Of a stretch of 64,000 nucleotides of DNA, positions 106 through 64,000 are shown in pieces (position 1 is the stretch's first letter; every line of letters starts with the position of its first letter). The stretch comes from Amoebophrya sp. A120. Taxonomy: Eukaryota; Protista; Dinoflagellata. The position numbers and the translations under genes were made by a program. The stretch is taken from assembly GCA_905178155.1 (NCBI GenBank), contig CAJINV010000013.1, positions 2,786,158 to 2,850,157 of the forward strand. The letters run 5' to 3'. Under the pieces are notes generated by a model that was given only the letters and a program-made list of their open reading frames with translations, did no database searches and was not told the origin of the DNA.

Positions 106-1205
106 CTATCGTACGTCATGCTCTTCAAGTTCAAAATACATGACTTTATTATACTTTTTGTTGTTCTGTCGTTCGATGATGGCGGTCATGAAGTAACCGA
201 TGGACCTTAGCGAGAACAGGTTCGCTTCCAGGGAGATGTAACTGAGACTCGGGCACGTGGTGATGATCTGGCAGATATCAAATGCAAAAATGTCTGGGTC
301 TGGAAAAATGCAAGATTTGTCATGCTTAACAGACTGCGCAGCTAAATGCAAGATTTGTCATGCATATTTCTCATGACCCATGATGCCTGTAATGCATGAC
401 CTAGCATCGCAAACATTCAAAGGGCTTCCTGATGCACGTTCCGCATGAGAAATGCCCTGTCAGTGCAGCACAAACGGCGCCCCTCTTGCTGGTCATGCAA
501 TACAAAACTTTTTAGAGTCCAAAAACAGCATGACAAGTTGCAATCTTCCAGACCCAGACATTTTTGCAATTGATAGCAGATGTCCGCACAGGAGTCCATG
601 GTCAGCTGATTTTTCGACAAGTCGAGCGTGTGCAAACTCGGGCAATCGGTGAGGACTTGCGACAAGGTGGAAAACCCAATATCGGAGATGGCGGACCCCC
701 GCAGCAGTGCCTGCTCCAAGTCCCGCTGACGGAGCCACTGATCCACGGTCCGGATGATTTTGGTCGCGGCTTTGGCCGCCTGCTCCGGCTGCCCGTCGTC
801 CTCGTTCCGCTGCAGTTTCGCGGGCTTCCCCTTCTTGTTCTTATTCCCATCTCGGTCGTCTTTCAGCTGCAATCCGAGAATGATGTTCTGCGCCTCGATC
901 TGCTCCCGCTTCGCGAGCTCCGCGTCGACGGACTTCTGCAGCGTGACGATTTTCGCCTTCAGCTGCGAAATCTCATCGTACTGGTGCTGCCCGGTGGACT
1001 GCTGGGCCGAGAGCTTTTCCGAAAGCTCGGTCAGCTCCTTTTTCAGAGCCTCGTTCTGCTCCTCAACCGGGGCCATCCGAGCCATGGTGTGCGAGTTTTT
1101 TTCGATGTACTCGGGCCAAACAAAATTAGTTTTTTCAACCCTCACGCAAAAAACGATAAAAAAAAACGTGTGGGTGAAGAAACACACAACTGTCACGCTT
1201 TTCAA
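106..1205 (-). CDS. Coiled-coil plus leucine-rich-repeat (RNI-like) protein, spliced; both ends uncertain
   Basis: LRR units CPSLHTLDLSKNQL and CPSLSYISLEANLF join in frame (ADIC|QIITT) when element 276-575 plus one TSD is removed. Confidence 0.65.
276..575. mobile_element. Introner family A (300 bp, includes a 38-bp internal insertion)
   Basis: TIR TATCAAATGCAAAAATGTCTGGGTCTGGAA / TTCCAGACCCAGACATTTTTGCAATTGATA; TSD GCAGA at 271-275 and 576-580. Confidence 0.95.
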
Positions 1206-2593
1206 AAAAGCGACGACAGAGTGGCCTGCGAGGAAGTAGGGATTGCTCGAAAGATTGAGATTTCGTATATACTTAACAGGAGTCCTGTAAAAATTTAACC
1301 GTGGATTAGCAATGTTGTTCTTGACACGGACACGATACTAGAACTACACGGATGTTTTTTACTTCACACTTCTTTGTCTTTCCCAAGATGTCCAAGGCAT
1401 GAGGAACGCGAGTCTAAGTCTAGCTTTAGCATTTTTACGACGTAAACCTAGTGTCCTGGTTCTAATTCTCTTGCACGACGGTGTTCTTCCAGGACGAAGT
1501 TTCGACATGGTAGATGGTGGACTGTACGACGAGATAGTGGAACTTCTGAAGTACGAGGATCTTCTGCAGCTCCGTCCAGAGGTGGCACAAGAACTGTACG
1601 ACAATCACACGCACGACCCGCACGGTGCAATACAGAACGATGGAGGGAAAAGAAACGACAGGCCCGTACTATGTTGTAAATAACTGACGATGTTTTCACG
1701 ACTGCCTGGTTTGTTCCCTTGATGTTCTAGTAAACGAGATTACTCCGTGCCGGAAGAACAGAATATGAGCACGACGAGGCACAATTTCGAAGATGATCCG
1801 AACCACGCCTGTAGCTCCTTGCATTCTTCTTTTCGGCCAAGAGCAAGTGCCCCTCGAGGTGGAGCCTCAAAGCCGCGACTAATGTACCTACACGCTCGTA
1901 CTTGTTTGTGCGCAGCTATTTTCATTATGGTATAGGTCCGAAAAGTTGCAGGACGAGAGCAACTCACTTCTAAAGTGCGGTCCTTTTCACTATACAGTCC
2001 TGCTCGCCATACTTACTTCTTCCTTTATCCCGATCTTTGTAGCTCTCCGGCGCGGTCACCACGCCCTCCACGCGCTCCGGAATGTAGGACAAGGGTGTTT
2101 CTGTCGGATCGATCTTATACCTGCGATTTTTCGACAATATGAACATCTTCGAATTCTCTTTGTACAACGAATCACGACACGGTCGCGCATAAAGAAGGCC
2201 GATGAAGATGATGCAGATCAAAAACAGTATAAAGCAAAATCATCAACTTTAGGATGTGTGGGGAGAAAAGACAGTGCTTCACGCCTCACAGCTTTGTTTC
2301 CCCCAGACTCTTCCCCGAGTATAAAGCAAAATGATTCAATTTCAGGCATAGTGAATTTCAATGATACAGCAAGTCGCTCCAGTCGTATTCCCCCTTGTAG
2401 CCTTTTTCGGAAAGTTCGGTTCGCTTTACGCCACGGTTCAGCTCGACAAAGTCCTCTGGCTGCATTTCCTGCCCGAAGTAGTAGGTGCCTTTAGTAGATG
2501 GTATTGATAATCAGATACGGTCGTAGGTAGTATGCATTTTTTTTGCATATGCTCTTTCACAGAAAACAGAGTAAAAGCTGCACGCATCACAAG

Positions 2594-4217
2594 CTAAGAC
2601 CACAAATGTTGCAATGTAAAAGAAGCATCATCATCTACCCCCCTGCTGCTTTTACTATCTATACCTGTATTCCCTTTGTCCGTGTTGTATTCGTTTGTTT
2701 TCTTCGCATACTCGAAGTTCTTTTCCCTTTCTGCCATCCACTCTTCTTTCCCCGCCGACATCAGCCCGTAGGTCGAAACCAACTTGTCCTTATATCGTTT
2801 CGCCTGCGTCTTGTTTGCGTAGACCGGCAAAATCACCTGCTTGCCCTTCTTCTTCCGCTCGACCCGCTCCTCCCACTGCTTCGCGTACTCTAACTTCTGC
2901 CGGTCCCGCCGCTCGAACTCGGTTTCCGCCCCGATCGCGCCCATCGGGTAGCCGTCGATGTCAAACGGCGCATCCGGCCTTCTGCCGTAGTTCGTGTGCG
3001 GCTTCACGGTTAACTTCCCGTTCTTCGCTTCGTGCGTCCGCACTTTTGACGCGACCATGACGAAGGGCCGGTTGCTGTCTTTCGTCAAAATTCGGGAACC
3101 CTGCGGCACGGACATGGCTTGGTATGTGGACAGCTGGGGGTCGAGCAGCTTCTCGATCTTCTCCAGCGCCGTGGGCTCCTTGTTCGGGTCAACCACACGT
3201 TTCGGTATCGGCGGCTGGATGGAGTCGTTTCGTTTGCCCGCTTGAAAACAGTCCCCGAAAGACTTCTTCTTCACTTCATCTGCTATCAGAACATCGGACT
3301 TGGTCTTGATGTCGAGCTGTTCTTGCTGCGTTTCTGCTCTAGTACCTGTTTTCGCTCCAGCAGTTGAGGAAGAAGTTGTTTTTGCCAATTCCTTTATCCT
3401 GTTTTGCTCGGAAACCGGAAGTTTGAAAATCATCCGCGGGTCGTTTTCCTTAATCCTCGACTTCTCATCCCCGCCATACACAATCCCCCCGCTCGCGAAT
3501 TTCGGCGCGTAGTCGAGTTTTACGGGCGGCTTCTTCCGGTTTTCGTCCACTTTCGCCTGGTATTCAATCTGCGTTTTCAACCGGTTTTTCAAGTCTCTTT
3601 TCTGCTTCTTCTCCTTTTTCTTCTCGTATTTCACTTGATCCGAACCGACAGAAGAGGGGTATGCAATCGCAAATATCGATCTGGGTCTTCTGGAGAAAGA
3701 ATGACACCTTAAGATCATGCTCGGCTAGCAGCTGTGTAGATCTAGAACTAGATTCTGTCACATGCATAAGGCGCAATAAACTCCAGCAGGGGTGGCTTTT
3801 TTGTTATATGCCCAATCGCAATTTCTCATGCGCCGAAGCAGGCCGCAACGAACCCACGCATTCGCATAGCAGCGAGAAAATTTATCATGCGTTGCTGTCT
3901 GTCTACTCAGGTCTCCTGCTTGCCACTCCCATTGTAGCATCACAAGTTCTTTCCAGAACAAAACCAGACCGATTTGCATGTGATAAGGGGGGCGCCGTGT
4001 CGATGTTGGGGACGTGCTTCCACGGCACCTCGTAAGGTTTGTCCGCGGCGTTTTTCGTCTTGCCGCTCAGCGTGAACTTCCGTCCCGTCTCGAGCGCCTT
4101 CAGCCGGGCAGATTCGAGGATGGTGTTCTGGTACACAGAATGGGCGAGTTGGCTGTATTCGTCGGTATCCTCCTGGTTCGCCCAACAGGGCAACCGGTTC
4201 GGCAAGGGGCGGTACAT
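2594..4217 (-). CDS. Uncharacterised basic protein, two exons
   Basis: ORFs 3903-4217 and 2594-3718 join as DTAPP|SSVGSDQ on removal of 3660-3985 plus one TSD. Confidence 0.7.
3660..3985. mobile_element. Degenerate A-like introner (326 bp)
   Basis: Starts TATGCAATCGCAAATATCGATCTGGGTC, ends CCAGACCGATTTGCATGTGATA; perfect TSD AGGGG; frame restored. Confidence 0.8.
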
Positions 4218-4851: not shown

Positions 4852-6613
4852 TTACAGTTCCGACTTCTTCTTTTTTTTCGTGCTCTTCGCCTTCCCAGTG
4901 GTAGCACCACTCTCTCCGCCCGCAAACGCAGTGAGCAAGTGCGTGTCAAAAAACTTCTCCATTCCCTTGTCCTCAGCCTCCTTCGAGGTAAATCGTTTCT
5001 CGGCCACCTCGGAAATTCAATTCGGATACATGTCTTGAACGAAATGTTATGGAAGTAGAAGAACGACGCCTAACAAAATGTGGACCCAAATATTGCTTTT
5101 CTGAATGACCGCAAGATAGTTAGAGCACTTCCCATTTTTTTATACCACTTCCCACTTTGGCGCAACGTCTTTTTCACCAACCTGGTCTTCCAAGAATTGG
5201 ACCACGAAAATCCTGCCAGTCTCGTACTTCTTGTCTACTCCAACTGCCACGCTATCCGAGGTGGACCCGGTTGTACTAGCTTTACTCGTCTCTACTCCCG
5301 ATTCATCGTCCAAACTGAACTCGCTGACCAGGTCCAGAGCGGCGGCCAACTGGCCCACGTCCGCCTGTTTCGCCTTCAGCTTGACCTTTTGTGCAAAAAA
5401 GAGTCGGGAGATATCCACGGAGCTGGTCATGGAAAACATGGCTTGCAGCTTTTTCTTCTTCAGATTCTTCTCCTTTGCAAGCTTCTCCTTCGCGTTCCAA
5501 ACCGCTTGCCGATACGAAAGGATCAGCTGATCGTCGTCTTTTTTCCGCTCCGGAAAAAGACCAATCACCTGTGGTTTTGATATGAAAATCGTGTTCCTGT
5601 AGTTGTCATGACAACAAACTACAAAACAACGGCCTCAAAAGAATTTCGCACAGGACGAGATATCTTGTTAGATAGACTCAAGTATCAAAAACCGTACCCT
5701 GATCTTCCCGGCCATCGCGGTTGTGCCGCTTTTCTTCATCCCGAAAAACTTCGTTTCCAGCTGTTCCTTCGACTCTAATACCTTCGCGAAGTGGATGTTG
5801 TTCGCCCCGTAGTACTTCGAGAGCAAAAACTTGTGCCCTTCCGGCGCGCCCTGGTACAGGGACAGCGCCTTTTTGAAGTCTTCCGTGTCGATGACTACCG
5901 GGTCGCCAAAGTTCTGAAACAGGATGTTGGTGGGCACCTGGTTGGGTTCCAGCCACTTCTCCGAAAACTCCTTTTCCATGTCAATGTCGACCATGCCGAA
6001 CGCGATATTCGTGTACTGCTATGGATTGCAAAAATGTCTGGGTCTGGAAGAATGCAACTTGTGATGCTATTTTTCGAATCTAAAAAAAATCTGTATTGCA
6101 TGAGCAGCAAGAGGCGTCCAGTTTTTGCTCCGTGGAGAGGGCATTTGTCATGCGGGATAGGCATCAAGATACCCGCAAAAAATCTGTCATGCTAGGAGAT
6201 GCATTACAGGCATCATAGCCCATGCGAAATATGCATGACAAACCTGGAAATCTTCCAGACCCAGACATATTTGCAATCCATAACCGCCACTGCCTCGCGA
6301 ATTCCGTGTACTGCTGGTAAATCTTCGCGTTCATCAAATTTGGGTGCGCCCCGGAGTAGAAGAGCAAGTACGCGCGCTCGTGTTTGTTCAGAAACTCCTC
6401 CGGCTCGTCGCAACAGGTACACCCTTTCACCTTCACGCTCAACTGCGTCACTTGGCTGTGGTCGTTTTCGCAGGGCAGGGCGGAGGTCAGCAGGGTGTTA
6501 AACGCAGAGAGAAAGAACATCACTGTGAGAAGTGCGACGGGAGCTCTTGAGGTCAGAAGACGAAAAGAAGTGGGAGAGCGGGGCACAAGCCCTCGCTCAA
6601 AAACGACTGACAT
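4852..6613 (-). CDS. Probable ER thioredoxin-fold (PDI-like) protein, multi-exon
   Basis: Hydrophobic N-terminus; thioredoxin-like segment YLLFYS...IAFGMVDIDMEKEFSEKW..VPT; C-terminal KSEL; one introner plus apparently canonical introns. Confidence 0.55.
6020..6282. mobile_element. Introner family A (263 bp), opposite orientation to 276-575
   Basis: TIR TATGGATTGCAAAAATGTCTGGGTCTGGAAG; TSD ACTGC/ACCGC; joins FARQW(R/Q)|YTNIAFG. Confidence 0.93.
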
Positions 6614-7547: not shown

Positions 7548-10500
7548 TCAGTCCTCTTTCGCCTCCAGAATTTCGTCGAGTTCCTTCGTTTTCAGTTCCT
7601 TTTTCTCCACTAGCGTTTTGATCTCCTCCTCTGCCGCTTTCCCCATCTCCTCCACGGCTGTCGCGACCGCCTCGGGGGAAGCGTCTGCAGCGACGTTTAA
7701 CTTCTTCAACTCCTTCGCCCGGTTCTCCAGGTACTTGGTCACATTCTGTTTCAGCTTTTTCAAAGTTCCCTTCGCCAGAGGGGTCTCTTCCTTCGTGTCG
7801 ACATTCACACTTGCATATCGAAAGGAAAAATCCCCCCTCCCCATATCGAAGCGGAAATTTCTGTTGCTGGATTTGTGTACACAAATCAGCGTTGTATTGC
7901 AGGAAGGCATTGCGACCAGATCCCCAGGCTAGGTAGGGGCGTATCGGTCTAGTTGGTCAGCATGGCAAATGCCTCGCCTTTAGGCCCAACAGCATGACAA
8001 ATCGCTTCCATAATGGGGGCGAAGCTTCTGCCCTTGCCTCCTTGCAAGACAGATGTCATTTGTGACCTCAAATCAGCAACGCAAATTTTCGGAAACATGC
8101 CTTTTTGATATGGGGAGGGGGAGTTTTTCCTTTCAATATTGCAACCGGCAACCCTTCTTCGTCCCGCTCCTTCGTAAACGTCATGTCCTCCCTATCCTGA
8201 GTAAAAACGTCCCCACACCAGAGTTGTCATGCGACTTTGCCATGACAGGAACATTTGTGATGCGCAACCCCACGACAGGCATTTTCAATCGTGTTTGGGA
8301 AATTGTAATGCTGTAAACAGGATCAGCAGATCGATTTGTGATGCGGCGTTCCTTGCTAACTTGCACTACCTTACGGACTGAAACTTGTCATGCGTGACTC
8401 ACAAAACTCCTAGGTTTGTGTTGCAAAATCCCCATCCTGACTCTGGTGTGGGTACGTTTTTACTCAGGATACTCCCGGGCCAGCAGCCACGCTTCCTTCG
8501 TCGCATATTGCAAGGCGTCTTTGCTCCTTTCCAGCTCCTTCTTCTTCGATCCGATCTTCGTTTCCAGCGACTTCAACTCCACCAGCAACTTTTTCTCCTG
8601 CTCCTGCGCCCGCTCCCGCATCAGCGCATTTGGATCCCGCAAAGTCCACTTCCCTTGCGATCCGGTGGCGCCGGCCGCCATACTCTTTCCGTCCTGCAAT
8701 TCCACACCGAGCTTCACCAAGGTTTTGTCGCGCAGGTCGTCGCAGAGGTCCAGCGTTTGCTTCTGTTTCGCACTCATCGCCTGCTGCTTCACCTCGTCGC
8801 GGAAGCTAACCAGCGCGTCCACGAAGGGCGCGACCAGTTCCTCCTTACTGACCGCACCGGCTCCACTACTCGCGTCGTTCTCGCCCAGCTCGTCGGACCC
8901 GGCGAAGACGCCGAACAGCTTCATGTATTTTGTGACCAACGCGGCGGCCTTGCGCAGGATCAAAACCCGCGGAGACCTTTGCTGCGTCTCCATCGAACTC
9001 ATGTACACGTTGCACTTTTTGATCATTTCACTCAAAATCTGCAGCACCTTCGGGTAGTTGAAGTTGTCCAAAAGCGCCTCGTGGATCTCGGCGTGGGAAG
9101 TCTGGATCATCTTGGACAATTGCTTTTCCTCGTCGCTCCAAACCTGCTCGGTGGCCGACGGGCAGCCGGCGTTCCGGATCTTTTGCTTCACGGTGCCCAT
9201 GAACGACCGGATGCGGTTGTCAAACTCCTGGGCCGTCAGCATCTGGTCGCTGCTGTAGTTCATTTTCCGGTCCCACCGCTGCTGCAGAAACGCGATGCGG
9301 AGCTGCGTCGCGGTGGTTTTCTCCAGAATTTCCTTGATAGAAAAAAAGTTCTTCAGACTCTTCGACATCTTCAGCCCCTCGATGTTCAGCGTGCCCGCGT
9401 GCGTCCAGTAGTTGCACCACTGCTGCGTGCCGTGGTAGCACTCGGACTGCGCCATCTCGTTGGCGTGGTGGGGGAACTTCAAATCCTGCCCCCCGCCGTG
9501 TATGTCCAGCCGGTCCCCCATCAAATCGGACGCCATGACGGAGCACTCGATGTGCCACCCGGGCCGCCCGAGGCCCCAGGGAGACTCCCACCGCGGCTCG
9601 CCGTCCTTGGATTTTTTCCACAGAGCGAAGTCTCGCGGATCCTTCTTCTCGACCGCCAACTTCACGCCCAGCGCGCCCTCGCCCTCCTGCATCGCTTCGT
9701 CGTCGATTTTGTCCTTGTTGCCCTTGGGCCCGAGTTTCGGGTAGTCGTGGTCGTTCTTCTCGAACTGTTTCGTGTCAAAGTAGACGGAGCCGTTGCTCTC
9801 GTACGCGCCCCCGGAAGCGACCATTGTCTTGATGAACTCCACAATCTGCAAAGTATAGTTGGAGGAGACACGAGGTTGATCAGATTTTTGTTTTTCTGAA
9901 ACCATTGAAATAAACCTGTCCTCCTCGTCGTGCCAGCACATCTACTCCTACTTCACAGCGAATAAACTACACGAGAAGCCATTGATTGTGAGGATTCAGA
10001 CAGAACTACTAGTACCTCCCAAGAAAAATCATGCTATCAATCTAAACGTCTGCAATCATCTCGTCTCCGTCTCCCAGCACGACCTTCCAAACAAAAGTAC
10101 TAAGCCATACCTGATCCACATACTCGGTGACGCGCGTGATTGCGTCCGGCGGCCGCACCCCCAGGGCGGCCATGTCGTCCCAGAAGCTGGCTTCGAATTT
10201 CCTCGCGTGGCGCTGAAAGACCATGTTGTCGGTGACAGCGCTTCCCACGGTCTCGTCGAGCCAGTCCTTCAGCTCGTCGCCGAGCACCGACGCCGCGGCC
10301 TCGAAGTCCTTTTTCTCCAACGCCACTCGCGTTTTCTCCGCGGTTTCGAGGAAAGTTTTCTGCTTCAGCTTGAACTTTTCCAACTTTTCCTGCTGTTCCT
10401 CCTCGCTCGGCGGCTTCCACCCTTTCGCGACCGCGGTCTCGATCTGCTGCTGGATTTCCGCGACTAGCTTTTCCTTCTTCGTCCGAAAGTAGTCGTCATT

Positions 10501-11896
10501 CTTCTCCGATAAAATCTTTTCCACGTCCTGGACAAAAGTCGCGCCGTTCGCCGCTAAGAATTTCCCCTCTCTCTGCTTCTTCAAATACTCCGCCAGCAGC
10601 TCGTTCTTCCGGGCGCGGAGGATAATCTTGTCGTCGATGTATCCTGAGTAAAAACGTCCCACACCAGAGTTGTAATGCAGATTTGCAAAGACAGGAAGAC
10701 TTGTCATGCGCATCCCCATGAAAGGCATTTCTAATCGTGTATTGGAATTTGTGATGCTGTGAACAGGATGAGCAGATGAATCTGTGATGCGACTGCAGTT
10801 GCTAACCTGCACTACACTGCGGAGTGCAACTTGTCATGCGTGACTCCCAAAACTCCTAGGTTTGTGTTGCAAAATCCCCATCCTGACTCTGGTGTGGGGA
10901 CGTTTTTACTCAGGATACGATGTCGGTAATGTTCAACTGGTACAGGACTTCGTACCCGAAGTAATCCTCCATCACTCGGCGCATGATGTCAAAGGTCAAG
11001 TACGCCCTCGCGTGCCCCAAGTGTGCGTGGTCGTAGACCGTGGGACCGCACACGTACCAGTTGACTCTCCGTCCCTCGTGCGGCAGGAACGGCTCGACCT
11101 CGTCTGTTAGAGAGTTTGTCATGCGCAGTCCGGAATAGCCCAGGGGGAAGGTTTCCGGGTTCGCGCCGACAATCTTCTCGTAGACCGCCGGCACGTGCCA
11201 CTTGAAATTGTCATTTTTTTCCACCACGAGCGGGGCGCCGCAGCATCCTCCACGGGCCACCATTCTGTTCGAGGGCGACGTTGTTTGTGGGACCAAAACC
11301 GCGTTGGAATCCACGTCGACAATGTTATTTGTCCGGGCAGAAGGGGAAAACTTCGTGCTTGTTCCGGCGGTGGTAGCTGGTGCGGAAGGAGAATTGGTGT
11401 TACTCTCCTGCAGCAAGTGCTTCGCAACAGCCTGATCCGCGGTGGTGGTTTTGTCTTGCGCCTGACCCATCTGGTCTAAGGTCTCCTTGTTTGCCATAGG
11501 AAAATGGATGAAGTTGTAGTTGGAAGAGCTGCGGTAATTGTTCTCGCTGGTATTGATATCTTCTGAGGTAGTTGATGAGGATGTTTTCCCTGTATTTGTT
11601 GCGGCTGCTACAGAAGCTGCATAGGTCGAGGAAATAGTGTTCCGTACACTCCTAAGGTAGTAGTTCAAGGTCGCTGTTGTAGTGACTTCCCGTCGTTGAT
11701 GTGAGTGAGAAGATGTTGAAAATGTGAATGTCAACGCTGACGAAGAAAATCTGCCGCTGGCGAGAACGAACTTGGAGTGACTTTTCGCACTCGCAGTAGC
11801 AGTTGTGGAAAATTTTCTTCTTGTAGCGGGAGAAATCGTTGCGGTTCTAATTTTCTTCAGGGTAAACGTGGCTGCAGCGCTTTTGGCGCTCCACAT
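7548..11896 (-). CDS. CARS: Cysteinyl-tRNA synthetase (class I), 5 exons; alternative start at 11497
   Basis: YVCGPTVYDHAHLGHAR (HIGH), NITDI|DDKII, WESPWGLGRPGWHIECS, DIHGGGQDLKFPHH, KMSKS; canonical GT-AG intron 9846-10110; three introners. Confidence 0.97.
7816..8138. mobile_element. Introner family C (323 bp)
   Basis: TIR TATCGAAAGGAAAAATCCCCCCTCCCCATATC; TSD TTGCA. Confidence 0.93.
8193..8471. mobile_element. Introner family B (279 bp)
   Basis: TIR TATCCTGAGTAAAAACGTCCCCACACCAGAG; TSD CTCCC. Confidence 0.95.
10640..10917. mobile_element. Introner family B (278 bp)
   Basis: Family B TIRs; TSD CGATG; splits the CysRS NITDIDDKII motif. Confidence 0.96.
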
Positions 11897-24814: not shown

Positions 24815-24899
24815 CGACTTCGCCCTGTCCTTGTCGCTCGACTTCGCCTTGTCCTTGTCGCTCGACTTCGCCTTGTCCTTGTCGTTCGACTTCGCCTTG
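24815..24899. repeat. 24-bp tandem repeat, about 3.5 units, probably coding (KAKSSDKD on the minus strand)
   Basis: CGACTTCGCCTTGTCCTTGTCGCT repeated head to tail. Confidence 0.9.
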
Positions 24900-52900: not shown

Positions 52901-53620
52901 CGAGATCACCTTGAAAAACGCCACCACCTCCTCCCACCAGGCCCCCACACAACAATCCGCCGCCGCAAAGAGAGCTTGCAAGAGAAGCAATGGAGGCGGC
53001 GGGGGGCTGCTGCGTATCAAAATGCAACAAACACGAACACCACAGGTACTAGTACAAGCGGCTGGAGATAAACGTAAAATAAAACTTTTAGTTCCCGTTG
53101 ATGTAGTAGTGTAGAAGACCTGACACAGTGGTCGCATATCTTATCGTCTGAATGCAAACCTTCCAAATATGAAATTTTGCTTTGGGTATGGCTCGGGGAT
53201 GGGATGGTCGTCGTGCTTTTCCAACTTGGATATGTGATCGTCTTTGTGCTGTAAACCAGCGGCTCCTTGACCTGGAACGGGAAACGCTTGCGAAGACCTG
53301 TGGAAGTTTTTTGTGCGTGGTTTTTTCTCACACTTAAACTTGAACGTCGTCACCACGCCGACTTTTCGTCGACGATCGTGCTCCTAATACAAATTTTTGC
53401 TTTCACTTTCACTGTACTTAGTTGTACCTTCTCCCTTCAAGCCCACCAATCCCTTTCCGCCCTTCATCGGGCCGCCCTTCACAAGCAGCTTTGCCAAACT
53501 GGTGGCGTCTTGCACTTCCAGAACCGGAAATTCATATTTCTCGGTCGTTGCAGCTGGTTCGCCAACCACCGCCGCTGCACCTCCGCTACTCAAAGCAGCG
53601 GCGGTTGCGGACTTAGCCAT
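49926..53620 (-). CDS. Uncharacterised multi-exon protein
   Basis: Series of minus-strand ORFs; VRPDF|DGTNNVFVTVEE|IGRMLAANP joins across two introners. Confidence 0.55.
50338..50658. mobile_element. Introner family C (321 bp)
   Basis: Family C TIRs; TSD TCTCC. Confidence 0.93.
50700..50954. mobile_element. Introner family A, diverged (255 bp)
   Basis: TATCCAGTGCAAAAAATATGTCTGGATCTGGAA...GACATATTTGCAATGCATA; TSD CGAAG. Confidence 0.88.
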
Positions 53621-55399
53621 GGTCAAGCTTGATAGACAGAACTTCAAAGCGAAACCTCTCTTCGACAACATTTTCGGATGTTTTGTCAAAGACAAAATGG
53701 GCGTCGTGTATTAAAATGAATTCAAAAAAAGGTGGCAGGGTTAATGCAAAAACCCCACGTTGTTTGTGACTGAGTTTGCTCGCAGTGACGATGCACGCAA
53801 CAGTGACAGAGGTCAAGTGAAGGTTACTTACTTCTTTCGAGCTTTTAAAAGCGCGATAGCTTCTGTTAAAGAGGTTTTTTAAAAAGCGGGGAATCGGAAT
53901 ACAAGGAGAGGACCGCTTCCCAAGTATCTTCGGAGATATCTGAATACAAAATCGGAACTTACTACATGGTCTAGGGGGAAGGTATTCATAACATCGAAAC
54001 GCTGACGCCGCACGCACGCAGATCGTTTTCTACTGAACAACTACCTCGAGTAGAACTCCAACGCAGATCTTCGCTTTTCGACTGTCGCACACACGCACGC
54101 AAACGAGGATCTTTTTCGTGTTCAAGGAATTCATCATCTTTATTGGTAGTATGTCGCTACATCCAAAAATCTTTCTTTCAGAGTGCTACGCAGGAGATCT
54201 TTCTGTGTTGCTGGATCATCACGGTGACAACACCAACAAGAACTTTCGTGAGGGACCAGAAGGCGCTTGTCTTTCCTCTAACTTTGGGCTCTTTTTTCTT
54301 TACCTGAACAAAGAAATCTGGCGGGCACGCGAGATTGATAGTACGTACTTCCTTGGCCGTCGGACAGGAATCAATACTAGCGCGTGCTGTACACATTTTT
54401 CGACTTATTCGTAAAGTAAACTAAACTTTTGCATTGCGTAACTTTTTGATTTCTTTCGACAATTCGCGATTGAAGTTGAGAGATTCGGAAAAAAGACCAA
54501 AAAAAGACAAAGACTTCAATCAGGCAATTCTTGCGTTAGAGAGATACTATCGAGCGATACTATTTTCTTACTTATTTTTGGGCATTGAATTTCGTAAAAC
54601 TTCAAGCATTTTGACTTCAAGACTTTTGGTAAATTGACCATATCTGGACTTTCCAGCGCATTCCGGCGAGAATACGCGAAAAAAAAAGCATTTGCATAGA
54701 AAAGGAAGCGAAAAGGCAGGCATCTTCAAACAGTAACCGCAATCAAACCTGTTGTAACCATACTCAGACCAGCAACCGACCGGGAGCGAATAAGCCAAAG
54801 CTTTGTCAGCCTTAAAGCTCCCAGCATATGTGCTGCAAGGAGTAGAGCGCGGCAAGGTCGCGAATTCAATAAATAAACTTTTTTTTTGATGATGTATTAT
54901 TCCAGACTCTCATAAGATTTGCAGTAAAAATTCATTTGTAAAACTTGGCGAGGACTTCATTTCAATAACATATCATCCGACAGCTCTTCAATAAAATCGC
55001 TTTTCCCGCCGTAGCAGCACAGCCCGAAAAAAAGTTGTAGGCACTCCTACACAGATCTACAAAGATACTTCATTTGGAAAAAGAAAAAACAGTTCACTGC
55101 GAAAATACCCTAATCGTGATTCACGACAATCCTTTCCAAGACCAGAGAGCATGACACCAAAAAGAGTGCGTGGGCCACTGCTCCGCCCCGGCTATGTATT
55201 TGATTCACCACAATCATGACTTACTCCTGTTTTTTATCGAATTTTCAATTGTCCTCATTTCTGAAGAATTATCATTATTTTTCCCTAGTACAACTTCCCA
55301 ATACCGTCAGCACTCCCGACCCGCCGACAGCTTCACTTTCAAGAACACGACCCGGTAGATGAAGTTGCTATTTTTACTTCTTCCCCGTCAAGGACCTCG

Positions 55400-58300
55400 T
55401 CACGCCGCCGCGACGTTCAAGCTTTCCATGGCTTCCACTAGTCTTGGTGGAATCGCCAAGGACGGGTATTTTTCCCGCAGCGTTTTCAAAATCTCCATGG
55501 ATTGCTGCAACAACGGGCGGCCGGAAGCGAAAAAGATTTCCATCACCTCCAGTTTCTCCTTGAACTCGCGGTTTTCGTACTTTTCCACCGCTTTTTTGAA
55601 CTCCTTTATCGAAGGAAAAAACTGTGTTAGTGTAGGTCTCTTGGGAAAACAGCATGACAAGTTTGTCTGCCATGATAGGAAAAACTTGTCATGCGCAGAT
55701 AGGGTGGGAAAACACGTAGGAAGCGAGCCTATCATGCATGTGAAGCATGACAAGCGTAACTGTTTTGCATTTTCTGCATCACGGACTTACACTTACAGAG
55801 TTTTTTTCTTGCATATCCTTGTTTTCCGTCACGATTTTTCGATACCGTTCCTCGGTCTGCGTCACGTCCTGCATCAGTTCCTGGGCAACGTCCAAAGCCT
55901 CCTTGTCCTCCTGCCGCAGCATGTGCAGCTCCTCAATCTGCTCCTGTTGCAGCTCCAGTTTCGGCTCGTACTTGTTGATCAACTGCTCCAGTTCGGCGTT
56001 TTTCAAATTTGCAACCTCGATCTGGTCGTGCAGCTGTTTTATCTTTTTCCCGAAGTCCATAGTATTGGAGGAGTTGTTGTTCGCCTGATCCTCGATCTGC
56101 TGCTTCAAGCGCTGGTTCTCCGCGAGGAGGGCACCTTTTTTCATTTGTGATACGTGTCTATATCGTTATCGAGCGACAGAATTTTTGCATGTTGACACAA
56201 GTTTCTACTTGCAGCTTTAACAGGTCATGCATAACAAAAAAAATCTAAACCTTGTTTCTTTCCTTCCTTATGGTGCCTTTCCAGCTCCTGTATCTGACGG
56301 TGGTTGTCTTTCTTCAACTTATTGATCACCGTTTCCATGCCCTCCACGATGGCCTCCAAGTTCTTCTCTCGCTTCGACTGTGGCTGCGCTTTGTTCGACG
56401 AGGAACTTGCACTACTATCTCCCGCTGTTTTACCCGAGGAATTCCTCCCCTTCGGCGAGACCGGCTGGTTGCTCTGGTTGATCAGTTCCAGTTCCCGGAT
56501 CCGGTTTTGCATGCGGTTGAATGCTATGAATTGCAAATATGTCTGGGTCTGGAAGGTCATGCTGTTTTTGCATGACGCAGATGGTCTGGCATGGAAGCTC
56601 TGGCATCACAGGTTTCGAGAAGCGTTCCCAATGCCGAATCCGCATGGCAACTCCCTGATTTTGGTGACAGAAAGTGGGCATCTTTTGCTGCCTATGCATG
56701 AGAGGTTTTTCTGTGTTCTGAAATGCGCATCACAAGTTTGTATTCTACTTCCAGACCCAGACATTTTTGCACTTGATAAATTTCGTTTCCCACTGCGTCT
56801 TGTCGAACAGGTATTCCATGGTTTTCATCTCCTTCTTTTTCACGTCGGATTCTAGTACCCGGATCTGCTTGGCGTAGTCCGCCGTTAAATCTTCCAGCTT
56901 TCGCACTTTCAAGTTGATTGTCATGTATTCCTCCTCCCGCTGCGCCCAGTCGTCCCCTAACCGGATCGACTTCACCCGCTTCAACTCGAACTTCACCTGC
57001 TCGCACTATCAAAAGGAAAAATCCCCCCTCCCCATACCAGAACAGAATTTCTGATGCTGCATTTGCGTACACAAATCGGGCTAGTCTTGCAGTAGAGTAC
57101 TGCAGACATATGCTAAGCCTGAGCATAGAGGTTTTGACATACCCGCTCAGCATGACAAAAGTCTACGCTGTAGGACCAACAGCATTACAACCGGCTGGCA
57201 TAATGAGGCCGACTCTCTGGAGTTGCCTTCTTGCAAGACAGCCAGGATTTGTGATCACAAATCTGCATCACTAATTTTCAGCCGGCTGCGTTTTTAATAT
57301 GAGGAGGGGGGATTTTTCCTCACAATACGCACTGCTGGTTCACCTTGTCCAGCTCCTCCTGCAATTGCTTCGAGTTCAGCTTCTCCTGCTCGAGCAGCTC
57401 CTTCGCGTCAATGGTTAATTGCTTTTCCATCGTCTCAATTTTCGACTCCAACTCGAAAATTTGACTGCGATACTGGTCCGTGGTCTTCAACTTTTCAATC
57501 TCCGCGTTGCTGGACTTGTTCTGGTGGTGCTCGAGCTCCGCTTGCAAGTTCTTCACCTGGTCTTCCAACTTCTTGGAGTTCTCGCGGATCTCGTTCGCCT
57601 TGCTATTCTCCTTGTTGATCAGTTGCACTTTGTGAAATTCCTTCTCCAAGTAATCCTTGTGCTCCTCGGCCTGCTTCAACTGTTTCCCGAGGTTCTCGAC
57701 CTGCTTCTTCAATTTGCGCGCGAGCTGCTGGTCCGCGGTTAACGTGGCTCCTCCTGCTTTAATACTACTCGAGCCCTTGTTCGCAGCTTCCTGCTCCAGA
57801 GGTGGGAGGTTAATATTGTTCTTTGCCGATTTCATATTCGCGCTTGACGTTATCCCTCCTGCGATCTTCCGCAGGGGGAAATCGCGGAGAATCACCTTGG
57901 ACACCTCGTCCGCTAAGCACATCCCGTTTTTATCTAAAATCACCAGCAAGTGGAGCTTCCGCACGGTTTCCAGCTTCAAGTTCAGTTGCCGGGCGAGATG
58001 TCCGCAGAGACTGTGGAACAAAACTCTCCCTGTTCGGAGGGGGTCGAGTTCCTTGAGTAGTTTTATTAAAGAGAGTTTCTGCTGGTTCAACGCATTGTGG
58101 ATTACCGACACCGCCGGCATCGCCTCCGTCCACTTACTCGCGTTGTTATCGTTATTACCGTCGTCCTTCGCCGCTTGAATGGACTTTATCAGGAAGTCCA
58201 ATTTCAAGAGGTTCTGCTGGTTCATGTTCGGCTGCTCGCTAGACGAGGCTCCTGCTGCGTAGTCTTGCTTCAAGACCAAAAACTCAAAAATCCTGGAAAT

Positions 58301-61300
58301 CGCAGCATCCTCCTCCTTCTGCTCGGATAGGCTCTGTGGGTTGGTCCCCCTGCTCGTTATCGTCTGCACCGCTTTCTTAAATTGCGCGGCGGTTAAAGAT
58401 TCTAACCCCCGGTGGTCGAATTGCGCGAACACGGAGCGGATGGACAAACCCGCGCCGGGGTTTTGCTTCATGTAGCTGTACAGCCGGGATTTGATGATCG
58501 GCAAAGCGGAACCCGCTAGCCACTGGCTCGCTTTCTGCCGCGATCGGCCAACCTCGGCTTCCGGGAAGGAGAGCAAAGAGGAAGAAGAAGCGCTGTTATT
58601 CATCGGCACTTGTTGTTCGGCACTTGTTGCGCCGTCGGCTGACGACGAAATTGAATTCGCACTCGTCGCCCAGGACATCTCCACCACAGCGTCGGGGTAC
58701 GCGATTTTTCCTTGCAGCTGCTGGTAGGACAACATGCCACTTCCCGTGTCCTGGTCCAACACGTTGAACAAGCTGGAGACGTCCGCCTTGGAGACACTCA
58801 CCCCGGAGACCGAGCGGAAGAGATTCAGATTTTCGAACAGGTTCTTGAACTCGACGTAAGACAAGAACCCGTCGCGGTCCTCATCTGCCTGGGTGAAAGC
58901 GTCCATCAAGCTGTACTTGTTTTCTATCAAAGTGTTCCTCAGAACCTGGATCGTGTTTTGCAGTAGGTGCGAACTTCTGATACGCCAGATGAACTCCTTG
59001 CGTGATTTGCTCGCCTCGTCCACGACCTGCAGCCGTTCCCTTTTGCTGAACTCCTGCTTCTCGAACTGGAGTTTGTGCAAGAAGTGGTCCAGGTCCGGAT
59101 ACGTGAGCCTGTCCGACTCGGCGCCCGACAAATCTGAGGATGGTGGGAGCGCACTGCGGATTTCCTGCTCCGCAACTTCCTCCTCGATCTCGACGGAGGA
59201 TGCTCTTCCAGCTGTTTCCCCCATTTTACTGCTCGCAGAAGTTTTTCTCCTCTTCAAAATCTTCGCCCGGATCTTCTCAAACAAGTTCGGGAACGTTTCC
59301 CCGCGGAGCTCTAAGTCGAAATCTCGGAACTGCATGAACCCTCGCGGATAGTTCATCTTCTTCAGATAGCGCTGCGCAACCTCCTCGAAGCTGTACTCCA
59401 GTAGACCGTCACTGTATCTTGGTTGCACCGTCTCCGCGCCGTTCGAAATGTGCACCGTGGGCGGGAGTTCGCCGTTGACGAGCTGTTGGAAGTTTTTCGC
59501 GAAAAGAAAATCCTCCCCGCCGGGGAACTCGTCCTTCGCAGAGTATTTGTCGAACAACTTCCGGATGTTCAACTTTTCCCTCGCGACCTTCTTCCGTAAC
59601 TGCGCAAACGGCCCCTGGTCCTTCGACTTGATCACCATCGAAGTGCTACTGCTGGAGGAACCTCCCGGCGCATTCTCATTTTCCGCTTTACTCTCTGCTT
59701 CTTTGTGCAGGAAGTTCATCATGTGCAGGGTTTCTTTCTCCTCGGATAGCAGCATCTGTTTCGCCTCGTACTCCCCTCGAGAAGTTAAAAAGGCAGTATC
59801 CAGGAGCCAGACGAACTCGAGCTCCAGGGCCGCAAGGGTTGGGGGCGCAGCAGCGTTTTTGCCTTCCACCTCTGAAGATGGCACATCACCGCTGCTGCTA
59901 GATGAGAGCACCTTGTTTAGAACTTCCTGGACCAGAACCTTCGCTTTCTGTTCGCTCAGAAATTCAAAAAAGGAATTGATCACCTGCTCCAAAATCTTCA
60001 CAGTTTCGTCCGAGGTAATCACCACTGTGTTTTGTGGTTCTACTTCTTTTTCCAAACAGATGGAGAAAACGACGCGCAGAGCCGTTCGCAGGGAAAACCC
60101 CCGCAGCATGTTCTTGCCAGAAAGCGGGTCGACGGAATTCCCTAGCAGCCCGAAGTGGAAGTCCGTGTTTTTCAGGGGGACAGGATCCATTTCTTCAAAC
60201 ACGAACTCCTGCGTCGCCTCCGCGTCGGAGCTGGACTTCGCACTCGCGTTCGCCACTTCCAAAACGGCAGCGAGCCACTCGACGTATTTTACGGCGTTGT
60301 CGTTGTCCACGTCCAAGAAGCTCGTCAAACTGTTGCCCTTCCCGCTGCCGTGCGTGAAGACCTGGTCTAGCTGCTGCGCGGTGATCGAGAGCGGGAGTTG
60401 ATTCAACGCTTTTTGCACTATTCGGAGCGGCAATTTGCCCGAGATAGAATTCTTGCTGCTCCTGTTCACAATTGTGTCCACCGCTTTCAAAATTTGCAGG
60501 AACGAAATTCCCTCGGTCGTTAATCGGGATCTAATGGAGGAAAACAACTCGCCCTTTTTCTCCGCCTCGGACAACTTCGACCACTTGTGATTTTTCTCCT
60601 TCTCCAAATTCGCCACCTGCTGCTGCAGTTCCGACGCCTTTTGGTCCTCTACTTCCAGTTGCTGTTGCCCACTACTACTAGCCGCCGCTCCCGCACTTCC
60701 GCCCGCTTCCGTTTTCATCTTCGCGACCTCGGCCGCCATCTGCTCCGCCTCGGTGGAAGATTCGTTTTCCTTCAATTTTTCCAGCAATTTTGTCATCTCC
60801 TGCTCGAATTTGTCCGCTTTCGTCCGCTCCCGTTCGTAATTGATGTTTGACTGGATCAGGTCGTCCTTTGTCTGCAGCTATTACAGTGAAAAGTGCCTCC
60901 CACCCCTCAAATTGCAAAAATTTTTGATGCGAGGTTTCCAAATGAAAACGTTTTGTCATGCATGAAAGGAGTATAAATCTTTCTGAGGCAGAGCCTAGGC
61001 GTGTATCGCATCGCTTGCATGACAAGGGCCGCTTTTGCTGGGGTCTTTTGCAATACAATTTTTTGCTGCTCACGATTGGAAACCTGTGATGCTAATAGAT
61101 GCACGAGGGCGAATGTTTCATTTGGAAAGGTTTGCAATACAAATGCTCCCAAGTTCGGGGGTGGGGGCATTTTTCATTGTAGTAGCAGCATCTCCTTCTC
61201 TAGACTATCCAGTTTCTTCGACAAACTCGTCGCTTTTTCCAAGGATTTATGCCGAGTAAAAACGTCCCCACACCAGAGCTGTCATGCAAATCTGCACGCC

Positions 61301-64000
61301 AAAAAAGTTTCTCATGCGGAGCCCCATGAGAAGCGTTTTCTAGTCGTGTTTTGGAGTTTGCGATGCTAGAATCAGCATGATATGCTAGGTCTGTGATGCT
61401 GCTGAACTAGCGCAACAGGATTGCACTAGGAGGGCAAACTTGTCATGCGAAACAGCGAAAGCTGGTTGATTTGTCTAGCAGATTCCCCATCTTGACTATG
61501 GTGTGGGGACGTTTTTACTCAGGATAAGATTCGTTTTTCACGTCGGTGGCAAGTTCCACTTCAGTCGCTAACCGTTTCGCCCGTGTCAGGAACAAATCCT
61601 TCTTCTCTTGCATCTCCATGTCAAAGATTTTGCTCAGCTTATCCTGAGTAAAAAACGTCCCCATCCCAGAGTCTTCATGCAAATCTGCATGCTAAAAAAG
61701 TTTCTCACGAGGAGCCCCATGCGCGGCGTTTTCTAGTTGTGTTTTGAATTTGTGACGCTCGGAGCAGCATGATATGCTAGCTCTGTGATGCTGCTGAACT
61801 AGCTCAACAGGACTAGACTACGAGGACAGGCGTGTCATGCGAAACAAGCAAAGCTGGCTGATTTGTCTAGCCGATTTCCCATCTTGACTCTGGGTTGGGC
61901 GGGACGATTTTACATATGATACAGCTCGGCTAATTTCTTCTTCAACCTCACGTTCTCCGCGGAAGCCGCGCCAGCCGTTGCGTTTTGCGCCTTCTGCAGG
62001 TAGTTTCCGCTGCGCTTCGGGTGGTTCGCGGATTTTCGGAGCTCGTCGTTTTCCGCTTCGAGGTAAAACAGTTTGTCGACCAGTTCCTGCAGCTTCGCGC
62101 CCGAAGAAACGTCGACAGAACCGGTACTACTCCCCTTCGGACCTTTTTTGGTCGTTTCCAACGCTCTTAAATCTTCGGATTGTCTCTTGAACAGAATCTC
62201 CAGCTTTTCCTTTTCGATCTTCAGTTTTGGGTAATCTTCGTTCTGCTTTTTCGTTAGCTCGAGCTGCTTCGCGAGAAGTTCGTTCTCTTTGCTCGTTTTG
62301 TCCAGTTTCTGGAAGAATTCCGTCGCCGTCACCGAATTCGGCTCGCCGTCGACGTTGACCTTTACCATGGCGCCAACCTCTTGCAGTCTCTTCTCCAACT
62401 TGATATTCACGGCGGACAGTTCGGTGATATCATGAAGAAAAATCCCCCCCATATCAAAACGGAAATCTGTGATGCAGATTTGTGGTCACCAATCAGCGTT
62501 GTCATGCTAGAAGGGAAAAGATACGGACTGTAGTGCTGGGCGGCGTGGGAAGGCCTTGCATCTTCAGCATGACAGGAGGCAGCTGGAGGTGCGAAACAGC
62601 ATGACAAATTGCTTGCAAACGAGGCCACAACTGCGGCTCTTGGTCTTCTAGCAATACAAGGCGATTTGTGTACTCGAATACAGCATCACAAGTTTCGTGC
62701 TCGATATGGGGAGGGGGGATTTTTCCTTTTGATAGGCGAGTCGGGTGTGAAATCGCTGCTTTTCGTTCGCCCGGTCCTCCTCCGAGTCGAAGAGCTTCTG
62801 CTTCAGCTCCTCGCCGTCTGTGATCACGGACAGTTTCGCCTGCCGCTCGGCGGACGCTTCTGTCAGAGGTGGTTTTTGGTCTGGTTGTTCTTTGGTGTCA
62901 CTTTTTCCTGTCGTGGAACTCGAGGCTTTTTGTTCCTCTGCTGGAGTGGAGGAAGAGCTCTTCTCGTCTCTCTTCCCTTGTTCAACATCCACAGCTGCGG
63001 GAGTTGTGGAGGCGTCGGTCTTCTTCTCCCCGACGACGACCTCGGCTGGGTTAATGTCCGTGAACGCTCTCGGGTCTTCCCGCAATAAGTTCGAACTCAT
63101 CACCAAGTCGTGCTTTGTTTTCGCCGTGTAGGTTGCCTCGTCGTCGATGTACTTCGATAAGTATTTCAAACCGTCCTCCAGTTTATCCAGAAATACCTCG
63201 TTTTCCTTCTCCTGCTGTTCTTTCTTCTCCTTATCATCGTTCGGTTTTCTATCCCCTCGGCTGTTCTGCATCGTGGTCAAATCTGTCAACAGATTCTTCT
63301 GGAACCACTCGATCCTGCTCCGGAACAGCTTGTAGCGTTCCGCGTCCCGCTCGAAGATCCGCACGTCGTTCGCCAAATTTCCCGCCTTTTCGATATCGAC
63401 CGTGTGTCTATCATTCAGCTTCTCAATGATTTTTTTCAACTCCTTCGCCTCATTCTCCGAAAACTGCATTTTCTGCTGCATCTGCTCGGTCTTGGCATTC
63501 GCCTGGTCCTTCTCCTCCACGGCCGTTTCGATCTCCGCGCAGAGTGTCTTCATCCGCTTTTGGAAGATTTCCGTGCGGTCGGAAAGCTCCATCTCGAAGA
63601 TCTTTGTCGCTTCAGCGAGCTGCTTCTTCACATGTTCAAACTCCTGCACGGACACCTCCTTCTTGTGCGAAGAACTTGGAACGTGGGAGGAGGAAGTAGC
63701 TTTCGTATTTCCAGCAGATTTGCTACCCTTCTCCTTCCCCGCCCCGGCGAGGGCGCTGCTACTCGCCGACGGTGCCACGCTGGCTGCGCCTCCAGAAGTT
63801 GCAGCTGCGCTCAGCGCGAGCAACTCCTTCGCCAGTTCCTCGTTCTTGTGCTCCAAAACCACCACTCGCTCCACCAAATCCCGAACGCCGCGCCCGGCGT
63901 TGAGCGAGTCCACGTTCTGCGCAAAGGTCTTCGAACTGGCAGAGCTGCCGGAAACGGGGAGTTTCAAATATTCCAGGCCGGCGAGCTCCTCCTGCAGCCG
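55400..64000 (-). CDS. Very large coiled-coil protein with several EF-hand-like motifs; 5' end beyond the window
   Basis: DAFTQADEDRDGFLSYVEFKNLF, FNVLDQDTGSGMLSYQQL, FLDVDNDNAVKYVEWL; exons separated by seven introners. Confidence 0.8.
55607..55815. mobile_element. Introner, candidate family E (209 bp)
   Basis: TIR TATCGAAGGAAAAAACTGTGTTAGTGTAGGTC / GACTTACACTTACAGAGTTTTTTTCTTGCATA; TSD TCCTT; joins ENK|EFKKAV. Confidence 0.88.
56525..56778. mobile_element. Introner family A (254 bp)
   Basis: Family A TIRs; 3/5 TSD AATGC/AATTT; frame kept. Confidence 0.9.
57007..57327. mobile_element. Introner family C (321 bp), opposite orientation to 50338-50658
   Basis: Family C TIRs; TSD CGCAC. Confidence 0.93.
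60879..61184. mobile_element. C-like introner with diverged interior (306 bp)
   Basis: TATTACAGTGAAAAGTGCCTCCCACCCC...GGGGTGGGGGCATTTTTCATTGTAGTA; TSD GCAGC. Confidence 0.88.
61248..61526. mobile_element. Introner family B (279 bp)
   Basis: Family B TIRs; TSD GGATT/AGATT. Confidence 0.92.
61640..61921. mobile_element. Introner family B (282 bp)
   Basis: Family B left TIR, degenerate right TIR; TSD CAGCT; interior resembles the neighbouring 61248-61526. Confidence 0.9.
62428..62734. mobile_element. Introner family C (307 bp)
   Basis: Family C TIRs; TSD GGTGA/GGCGA. Confidence 0.92.

Follow-up and report, generated by a model that had tools for sequence, protein, structure and literature searches.

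The window, meaning the whole 64,000-nt stretch analysed here (Amoebophrya sp. A120, assembly GCA_905178155.1, contig CAJINV010000013.1, positions 2,786,158–2,850,157), contains co-oriented genes whose reading frames lie on the minus strand and which are interrupted by 39 short elements with terminal inverted repeats (TIRs), as well as by nine GT-AG introns that share transcripts with the elements. The elements are non-autonomous TIR mini-transposons, many of them flanked by a 5-nt target-site duplication (TSD). They are removed from RNA and kept in DNA, and they leave in a single register, as introns of the form N-T-A...A-N6, independently of the TSD. What is new is this cut rule, obtained from old, decayed copies; the position of the border had previously been left open. 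The elements and comparator introns are given below with the TSD matches (of 5) and, last, the evidence for each.

276–575, minus: family A element, TSD 5/5; sequence; predicted intron 272–576 (CT..TG)
3660–3985, minus: family A-like element with decayed TIR, TSD 5/5; sequence; predicted intron 3656–3986
6020–6282, minus: family A element, TSD 4/5; sequence; predicted intron 6016–6283 (TT..AG)
7816–8138, minus: family B element in cysteinyl-tRNA synthetase gene, TSD 5/5; sequence
8193–8471, minus: family C element in cysteinyl-tRNA synthetase gene, TSD 5/5; sequence
9846–10110, minus: GT-AG intron (comparator); RNA joint
10640–10917, minus: family C element, TSD 5/5, 283 nt removed; RNA joint 10634 to 10918, intron 10636–10918 (GT..TC by the register rule), Pfam 57|58
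12778–13042, minus: family A element, TSD 5/5, element + 5 nt removed; contig-length arithmetic
13301–13461, minus: GT-AG intron (comparator); contig-length arithmetic
13759–13954, minus: GT-AG intron (comparator); contig-length arithmetic
14118–14439, minus: family B element, TSD 5/5, 3′ end ATT; arithmetic; the rule's register reads GT..AG by coincidence
18977–19252, minus: family A element, TSD 5/5; sequence
20231–20486, minus: family A element in alpha/beta-hydrolase gene, TSD 5/5; sequence
20561–20839, minus: family C element in alpha/beta-hydrolase gene, TSD 5/5; sequence
22176–22501, minus: family B element, TSD 5/5; sequence
22567–22832, minus: family A element, TSD 5/5; sequence
22916–23215, minus: old singleton, TSD 4/5, end pairing nearly gone; sequence; whole in DNA contig
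26344–26678, minus: old singleton, TSD 1/5 (4-nt repeat displaced by one base); sequence; whole in DNA contig
27150–27492, minus: old family C-like element, TSD 4/5; sequence; whole in DNA contig
28731–28992, minus: family A element, TSD 5/5; RNA piece ends at 28725 as expected, one side only
39580–39889, minus: family B element, TSD 5/5; sequence
39937–40198, minus: family A element, 5′ end TAC, TSD 5/5; sequence
42226–42426, minus: candidate decayed element, TSD 2/5, between stop codon and next ATG (5′ untranslated region or intergenic); sequence
43257–43457, minus: candidate decayed element, TSD 0/5; sequence; frame stays open at the rule's register
43495–43756, minus: family A element, TSD 5/5; sequence
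44217–44514, minus: old singleton, TSD 2/5, intron 44213–44515 (CT..GG); RNA joint in 4/4 runs
44705–45062, minus: old singleton, TSD 3/5, intron 44701–45063 (CT..GT); ends called before RNA was seen; RNA joint in 4/4 runs
45135–45409, minus: old singleton, TSD 2/5, intron 45131–45410 (CT..AG), one placement possible; RNA joint in 4/4 runs
45510–45820, minus: old singleton, TSD 1/5, intron 45506–45821 (TT..TC), one placement possible; ends called before RNA was seen; RNA joint in 4/4 runs
46803–46922, minus: GT-AG intron (comparator); RNA joint
46998–47212, minus: old singleton, TSD 1/5, intron 46994–47213 (CT..CC); RNA joint in 4/4 runs
47242–47503, minus: family A element, TSD 5/5, 267 nt removed; RNA joint in 4/4 runs
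47665–47939, minus: GT-AG intron (comparator); RNA joint
48547–48855, minus: old family A element, ends TAC/AGA, TSD 2/5, intron 48543–48856 (CT..GA); RNA joint in 4/4 runs; internal cryptic GT and AG unused
50338–50658, minus: family B element, TSD 5/5, 326 nt removed; RNA joint in 4/4 runs
50700–50954, minus: family A element, TSD 5/5, 260 nt removed; RNA joint in 4/4 runs
51548–51796, minus: GT-AG intron (comparator); RNA joint
52415–52584, minus: GT-AG intron (comparator); RNA joint
52904–53232, minus: old singleton, 3′ end ATC, TSD 3/5, intron 52900–53233 (AT..GC); RNA joint in 4/4 runs
53298–53427, minus: GT-AG intron (comparator); RNA joint
55607–55815, minus: family D element, TSD 5/5; contig-length arithmetic
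56135–56250, minus: GT-AG intron starting GTT (comparator); its 116 nt close the contig arithmetic
56525–56778, minus: family A element, TSD 3/5; arithmetic
57007–57327, minus: family B element, orientation opposite to 50338, TSD 5/5; arithmetic
60879–61184, minus: family B-like element, 5′ end TAC, TSD 5/5; arithmetic
61248–61526, minus: family C element, TSD 4/5; arithmetic
61640–61921, minus: family C element, TSD 5/5; arithmetic
62428–62734, minus: family B element, TSD 4/5; arithmetic; a mismatch-free RNA piece from 62735 restricts the 5′ offset to 0–2

Inverted-repeat and direct-repeat scans, with decayed copies counted, span elements from the first (276–575) to the last (62428–62734), of 201–358 bp each and 11,126 bp together, or 17.4% of the window. 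The sequence-only reading had described about 30 elements of 209–326 bp with TA...TA ends and 5-bp TSDs; the elements are real and most ends are as described, while the count, the size range, three 3′ ends (ATT, ATC and AGA) and the imperfect TSDs of 16 of the 39 copies (0–4 of 5 matches) depart from that description. A perfect 5-nt direct repeat adjoins both TIRs in the remaining 23 (chance ∼0.001 each). It had also been stated that most copies allow no GT-AG placement, and this is so for 21 of these 23 in all six registers, the exceptions being 14118 and 28731; the TSDs quoted for it, TCTGC, TGCAA, CATCG and ACTCC, belong to 276, 7816, 10640 and 12778. Five elements were recognised solely through their RNA joints. 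Two others (42226–42426 and 43257–43457), retained from a noisy de novo scan for decayed elements (131 rows), are decayed candidates and were excluded from the base tallies, which cover 37 elements.

There are at least four TIR families in the window, defined by end motif (A, n = 14; B, n = 7; C, n = 6; D, n = 1), with 11 elements outside them, and families A and B include copies of either orientation with respect to the host genes (for B, compare 50338 with 57007). The 5′ end is TAT in 32/37 elements and TAC in 5/37, and TIR positions 11–13 are A in 31, 35 and 35 of the 37. Matches of 82–95% in metagenome loci were found for 22/39 elements. The flanks are GC-rich and exon-like: a GC fraction below 0.45 occurs in 1/39 window copies and in 7/176 copies of a metagenome hold-out set (described below), compared with 23% and 29% of background windows. 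The single low-GC copy is the decayed candidate 42226–42426, upstream of an ATG; since it lies between a stop codon and that ATG, the earlier statement that all copies lie within genes holds for intact copies only.

Deletion of 29 elements, each with 5 nt, yields among others a 1,998-codon frame at 56228–64000 that runs through six elements. Similarly, the Pfam tRNA-synt_1e profile continues from positions 4–57 to 58–108 across element 10640, in a cysteinyl-tRNA synthetase of eukaryotic type whose best homologue match is 88% identical. The in-frame fusion of exons, and the presence of ordinary GT-AG introns in the same genes, are thus as the sequence-only reading had them.

Transcript evidence comes from assembled contigs of four runs (X1–X4) of one sample, whose RNA nature was judged from the absence of the GT-AG introns; of the ten runs listed, none that contains the sequence is recorded as RNA. 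Two stretches, 9,400–29,300 and 44,000–63,900, were compared with the runs; ten elements lie elsewhere. Twenty elements are missing from RNA-type contigs as the element plus exactly 5 nt, 11 of them by two-sided joints and 9 by contig arithmetic, and one more (28731) has one-sided support from an RNA piece that stops at 28725. In 44,000–63,900, 15 of the 23 joints are listed, each found in 4/4 runs (5 GT-AG and 10 non-canonical), and the remaining 8 are explained by one 8,301-nt contig, whose pieces measure 811 and 667 nt, as they should once seven elements, each with 5 nt, and one 116-nt GT-AG intron are taken out of the genomic spans; this arithmetic sets summed lengths, not individual offsets. 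Each of the 17 elements here is removed, and the 17 non-canonical introns among the 23 are all of the element type. In 9,400–29,300, only 15 of 609 joints are listed, DNA-run repeat artefacts prevailing, and 8 of the 12 elements have no listed joint, which does not speak for their retention. Here, run X1 joins 10634 to 10918, with 278 + 5 nt gone, and a contig with breaks at 12772 and 14440 has a middle piece of 713 nt, exactly what is left of the intervening 1,070 nt once two GT-AG introns are taken out.

Run X5 is of DNA type, with a flat depth of 42–47. Its contigs pass unbroken from exon 23–67 nt into 12 element ends (at least 31 nt in 4 of the 12), and they cross elements 22916, 26344 and 27150 and three GT-AG introns entirely. 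Excision at the DNA level, as for the internal eliminated sequences of ciliates, with the "spliced" contigs representing rearranged DNA, would suit the origin of the elements from DNA transposons, the presumed RNA label of X1–X4 and the few joints listed in 9,400–29,300; the same contigs also lack the nine GT-AG introns, however, and the X5 contigs retain both elements and introns, which makes this explanation highly improbable. Removal through cryptic GT-AG sites near the ends has still less to recommend it. Ten of the 11 RNA-joined elements do have in-frame GT/YAG pairs no more than 30 nt from their ends, but all are ignored: no joint found in 4/4 runs uses one, and the two joints with a single possible placement read CT..AG and TT..TC, with the reservation that contigs drop rare forms. 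Loss of exactly the element plus 5 nt from RNA was what the sequence-only reading had foreseen, and in the main transcript form neither retention of elements nor use of cryptic GT-AG sites was found.

A perfect TSD leaves the cut unplaceable; the old copies with decayed TSDs place it. The permitted (5′, 3′) offsets of the 11 two-sided joints intersect in (1,4) only, the cuts lying 1 nt outside the 5′ TA and 4 nt past the 3′ end, and introns 45131–45410 (CT..AG) and 45506–45821 (TT..TC) permit (1,4) alone. Circularity was checked for: the ends of five introns were set after the RNA had been seen, and those of 45510 and 44705 before. From ends called in advance, 45510 by itself gives (1,4), and the intersection of 44705, {(1,4),(2,3)}, with 48547, {(0,5),(1,4)}, whose 3′ end is fixed by family A homology, gives the same register. 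A placement offering T+2, A+3 and A−7 arises by chance with p ∼0.014, and all five RNA-discovered introns offer one. As the TSD matches at only 1–3 of 5 positions in eight old RNA-supported copies that are nevertheless spliced, the TSD is dispensable for removal. Additionally, six old introns without a family obey the N-TA...A−7 rule, which suggests that family-less non-canonical introns (6/17 here) are aged introners, the mobile intron-forming elements already described from this genome.

In this register, T at +2, A at +3 and A at −7 are each present in 37/37 elements. The +1 base is free (C 12, G 12, T 8, A 5), all four bases occur at −2 and −1, and constraint is likewise absent from −4 to −1 as a whole and from the exon bases. 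Of the features of U2 introns, the elements thus lack G at +1 with AG at the 3′ end, as the single-placement joints CT..AG and TT..TC illustrate, and possess U at +2 with a purine at +3; ordinary introns of the window begin GTA in 8/9 cases. A−7 is preceded by G in 28/37 elements and by T in 20/37, and its putative function as a branch point is read from its conservation. A U tract at −15 to −19, which the ordinary introns here do not have, may serve as a polypyrimidine tract.

An invariant A lying 7 nt from the 3′ cut resembles group II intron geometry, and the ends pair, so that self-splicing RNAs using A−7 as a bulged adenosine come to mind. We regard this as very unlikely: the interiors, whether of families or of old singletons, have no detectable common sequence, the elements measure only 201–358 nt, both orientations work, and an Rfam scan of the window returned no match.

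The two ends do not decay alike in the window. At the 5′ end, +4 is C in five copies, and at the 3′ end −7 is G in none; conversely, 3′ positions −5/−6 are altered in three copies and 5′ positions +2/+3 in none. Equal decay of the two ends would be expected of a symmetric signal, and the asymmetry was tested in a hold-out set from a metagenome scan, which gave 150 loci in a related assembly that carry the same families; its copies were called from sequence alone. Of 234 distinct calls, 19 were removed because of their length and 110 because the strand was unclear, so that 105 oriented copies remained; the strand score was correct for all 20 real window elements that it detected. There are 11 terminal deviations, nine of them on the side expected from the window (one-sided p 0.033). 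T is present at +2 in 105/105 copies, +3 is A in 104 (G in one), and −7 is A in 104.

The pairing of the ends has to be weighed separately. It is strong in young copies and persists in old ones: for 13/14 of these, the cognate 3′ end is among the four best-ranked of 14. Mismatches in the old copies favour G-U over A-C by 34:9 (26:8, p 0.003, without two candidates that were found by a G-U-weighted score; 16:6, p 0.052, in RNA-supported old copies), and the element interiors have no such strand skew (0.514). These observations, together with the complete freedom of the terminal dinucleotides, would suit a separate, non-spliceosomal nuclease-ligase, or a second spliceosome, that is guided by the base of the TIR hairpin, with cuts placed 1 nt and 4 nt beyond it, a mechanism of the kind proposed for euglenid nonconventional introns; apart from the register, this is the view of the sequence-only reading. 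The euglenid introns likewise have offset TIRs and exit as circles, according to the open parts of a review of them (PMC11282704); no go-back joint indicating a circle was found among the 15 of 23 joints listed in 44,000–63,900. However, three copies that are spliced precisely do not exceed ordinary introns in pairing (z −1.2 to −1.6, against −1.8 to +0.7 in controls), the predicted whole folds of 45135 and 45510 contain 0 end-to-end pairs, and the younger copies of the hold-out set show no G-U excess (83 vs 85). General end pairing of the nine ordinary introns is itself at most weak (p 0.044, 0.14 and 0.17 for 30, 40 and 50 nt). Of six registers, moreover, the one in use gives the elements the spliceosomal T+2 and A+3, as is also the case for the unrelated elements of strain A25, and the asymmetric conservation of 5′ TA and 3′ A−7 would be needless for a cutter of symmetric hairpins. 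The (1,4) geometry is also unlike the bulge-helix-bulge of tRNA endonucleases. We therefore consider such a nuclease-ligase a possible but less likely explanation.

The explanation we prefer, with a probability of roughly 0.6, is that an altered U2 spliceosome excises the elements, with a branch adenosine at −7 and with help from end pairing. A DDE transposase acting in trans would insert the element with a 5-bp duplication. The 5′ TIR would then provide U+2 and A+3 of the donor site, with the +1 base free, and the 3′ TIR would provide the branch adenosine; the acceptor would be picked by distance, 6 nt past the branch A, and not by AG. Pairing between the TIRs would draw the ends together and may replace U1-dependent intron definition, and old copies would shed the TSD and family likeness while retaining these few bases. 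The two offsets, 1 and 4 nt, add up to the length of the TSD, and the ends are symmetrical, so that the exact mRNA is restored whichever way round an element inserts; such silent insertion likely explains the invasion of exons.

Since the register puts T and A at spliceosomal +2 and +3, an altered spliceosome would explain it no worse than a separate pathway. The proposal of a second excision pathway beside the spliceosome, made in the sequence-only reading, is thus not established, given the fixed register, the dispensable TSD, the T and A at +2 and +3 shared with ordinary donors, and the invariant A−7. According to the open parts of Farhat et al. 2021 (PMC7789003), the spliceosome is nearly complete in A120 and A25, and the nine top non-canonical motifs of A120 and the nine of A25 in Table S4 all have T at +2 (18/18), A25's nine all being TT-NN; the A25 repeats begin TTA and its elements are unrelated to those of A120. 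Fixed short branch-to-acceptor spacing occurs in Yarrowia, Trichomonas and Giardia (PMC2483917). The distance proposed here for the elements would be of the same kind. Taking the last A of TACTAAC as the branch A would put it at −6 and −8 in those organisms.

Several points weigh against an altered spliceosome. In the predicted hairpin, the donor and A−7 are both buried, and A−7, whose putative branch function is read from its conservation, is itself part of the TIR. Only 2/9 ordinary introns have A at −7, their 3′ ends being A/C-rich, and the 3′ rule therefore differs between the two classes. There is no drift towards G or AG at +1, −2 and −1 in the eight old RNA-supported copies, though these bases pair in the second step of the spliceosome. 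The asymmetry in the window was first noticed post hoc among related copies, and the hold-out set has exceptions: L004 starts TGT, L116 has C−7, and L005, one of the copies dropped because of their unclear strand, would have G−7. The transcript evidence consists of contigs of one sample with a presumed RNA label, and the aligner behind the motifs of Table S4 favours GT/AT starts (PMC7789003, in its open parts).

The same bases could alternatively be read by a dedicated mRNA-splicing machine, recognising U+2, A+3 and A−7 with a 1/4-nt ruler and rejoining any exon ends, which we hold to be conceivable though tentative. If so, most introns of the genome would be removed by it, and any TA-ended transposon with a 5-bp TSD would be perfectly silent. 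If instead the altered spliceosome is correct, a spliceosome would have dropped both near-universal recognitions of a terminal G while still splicing GT-AG introns, with no detectable U1; if not, a second mRNA-splicing chemistry exists. Either outcome bears on the conservation of GT-AG and on how transposons turn into introns. Whichever machinery acts, the single rule N-TA...A-N6 replaces "variable splice sites" for introners, whose mode of splicing has been open since 2021, and it permits a corrected re-annotation of tens of thousands of junctions.

The elements are probably the published introners of Amoebophrya A120, a system already known; the link, which the sequence-only reading drew in general terms, is closer than stated there. 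In the open parts of Farhat et al. (PMC7789003), the A120 repeats are TAT + 7 nt + at least 3 A, as here; direct repeats are 3–5 nt (5 bp in the Fig. S19 legend), compared with a perfect 5 nt in 23/39 elements; non-canonical introns average 240 nt, matching the sizes here; introners make up 17% of the assembly, against 17.4% of the window; 65% of introns are non-canonical, against 17/23, with mixed genes in both; and genes are co-oriented. Their splice sites are described as variable and the border as unknown (Fig. 3 legend), whereas we find a single register, TSD independence and N-TA...A−7. The A120 families of Gozashti et al. 2025 (PMC12130899, open parts) have 250–320 bp and ∼30-bp TIRs, like the elements here, and the 5′ ends of the large families are ∼27% GT, 15–18% AT and 45–50% other, as expected with a free +1. 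Labels in that work vary ("co-opt both", "carry 5′", "carry 3′"), and no common register is given among 21 of its 58 A120 rows. A published statement of the cut register was not found in the open literature, including reviews and the 2025 genome paper; subscription journals, theses and figures 3 and S19–S25 of Farhat et al., which may be relevant to the register, lay outside the search. The consulted portion of the Roy et al. 2023 preprint does not mention Amoebophrya.

Comparable systems exist elsewhere, as far as the open parts of the respective papers go. The non-canonical introns of Fritillaria borealis are transposon-derived, with TIR and TSD, lack GT-AG ends, occur beside GT-AG introns and are spliced by the U2 spliceosome (PMC13326754, PMC11282704), which counts in favour of the spliceosomal explanation. 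They prefer AG-AC/AG-AT ends and U1 is kept, in contrast to the elements here, whose fixed positions are +2/+3 and −7 only and in whose likely host no U1 was found. Euglenid nonconventional introns (PMC11282704) share TIR pairing inset from the ends, TSD-like repeats and coexistence with spliceosomal introns. They differ in a CAG/CTG pair at +4..+6 and −8..−6 (here T-C-A/C/G and G-A-T), and in having no pyrimidine tract and releasing circles, where the elements have a stem from +2 and −5 and the U tract at −15 to −19.

No transposase was found by Pfam in 68 open reading frames (ORFs) of the window. The sequence-only reading had looked to long copies with the same TIRs for one; none was found in the longest copies (457–1,255 bp) among the 150 metagenome loci, 12 of 13 ORFs of two long copies having been scanned. 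Long copies of families A and C with non-coding cargo are present at L010:2990–4244, L052:3304–3934, L077:4013–4984, L051:571–1051, L028:3303–3759 and L075:1306–1809. The cargoes of L010 and L052 are 70% alike over 249 nt, and that of L010 is bounded by a ∼20-nt direct repeat. An orthologous empty site was sought with the element-masked window, which had no match in 152 loci. Two viral_contigs matches proved to be chance 19-mers with no TIR context. The TA..TA ends point, as a lead for the mobiliser, to an IS3EU/GingerRoot-like transposase: those transposons share the TA..TA termini, and their integrase-related transposase would fit the integrase-like ORF of A120 introner family 38, although their TSD is usually 6 bp, compared with 5 bp here (PMC10045372, PMC12130899, in their open parts). 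No match between family 38 and the elements here was made from the accessible part of that work (PMC12130899).

Raw-read runs X8 (23 reads) and X9 (4 reads) gave no junctions on 9,400–29,300, nearly all reads diverging from the window. These 2026 RNA runs, filed under the same species label, match element ends only, which suggests that family A ends related to those here sit elsewhere in the genome of another strain.

Among the host genes, a very long coiled-coil gene with an EF-hand pair (55403–64000, minus) contains seven elements and one GT-AG intron and is represented by one 8.3-kb transcript contig. A 1,763-codon frame at 32333–37621 (minus) has no intron, element or Pfam match; it is enclosed in a 10.6-kb stretch (28993–39579) in which no element was found. 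At 26344–26678, removal of the element plus 5 nt yields a plausible frame despite the displaced 4-nt repeat. The ordinary introns, which have no polypyrimidine tract, are more G+T-rich in their first 40 nt than in their A/C-rich last 40 nt in 9/9 cases. A micro-exon of ∼24 nt (47214–47236) separates two elements that are both precisely spliced. Before 44149, all four RNA runs have the same 255-nt loose end, which is probably a further joint to an exon beyond the compared stretch.

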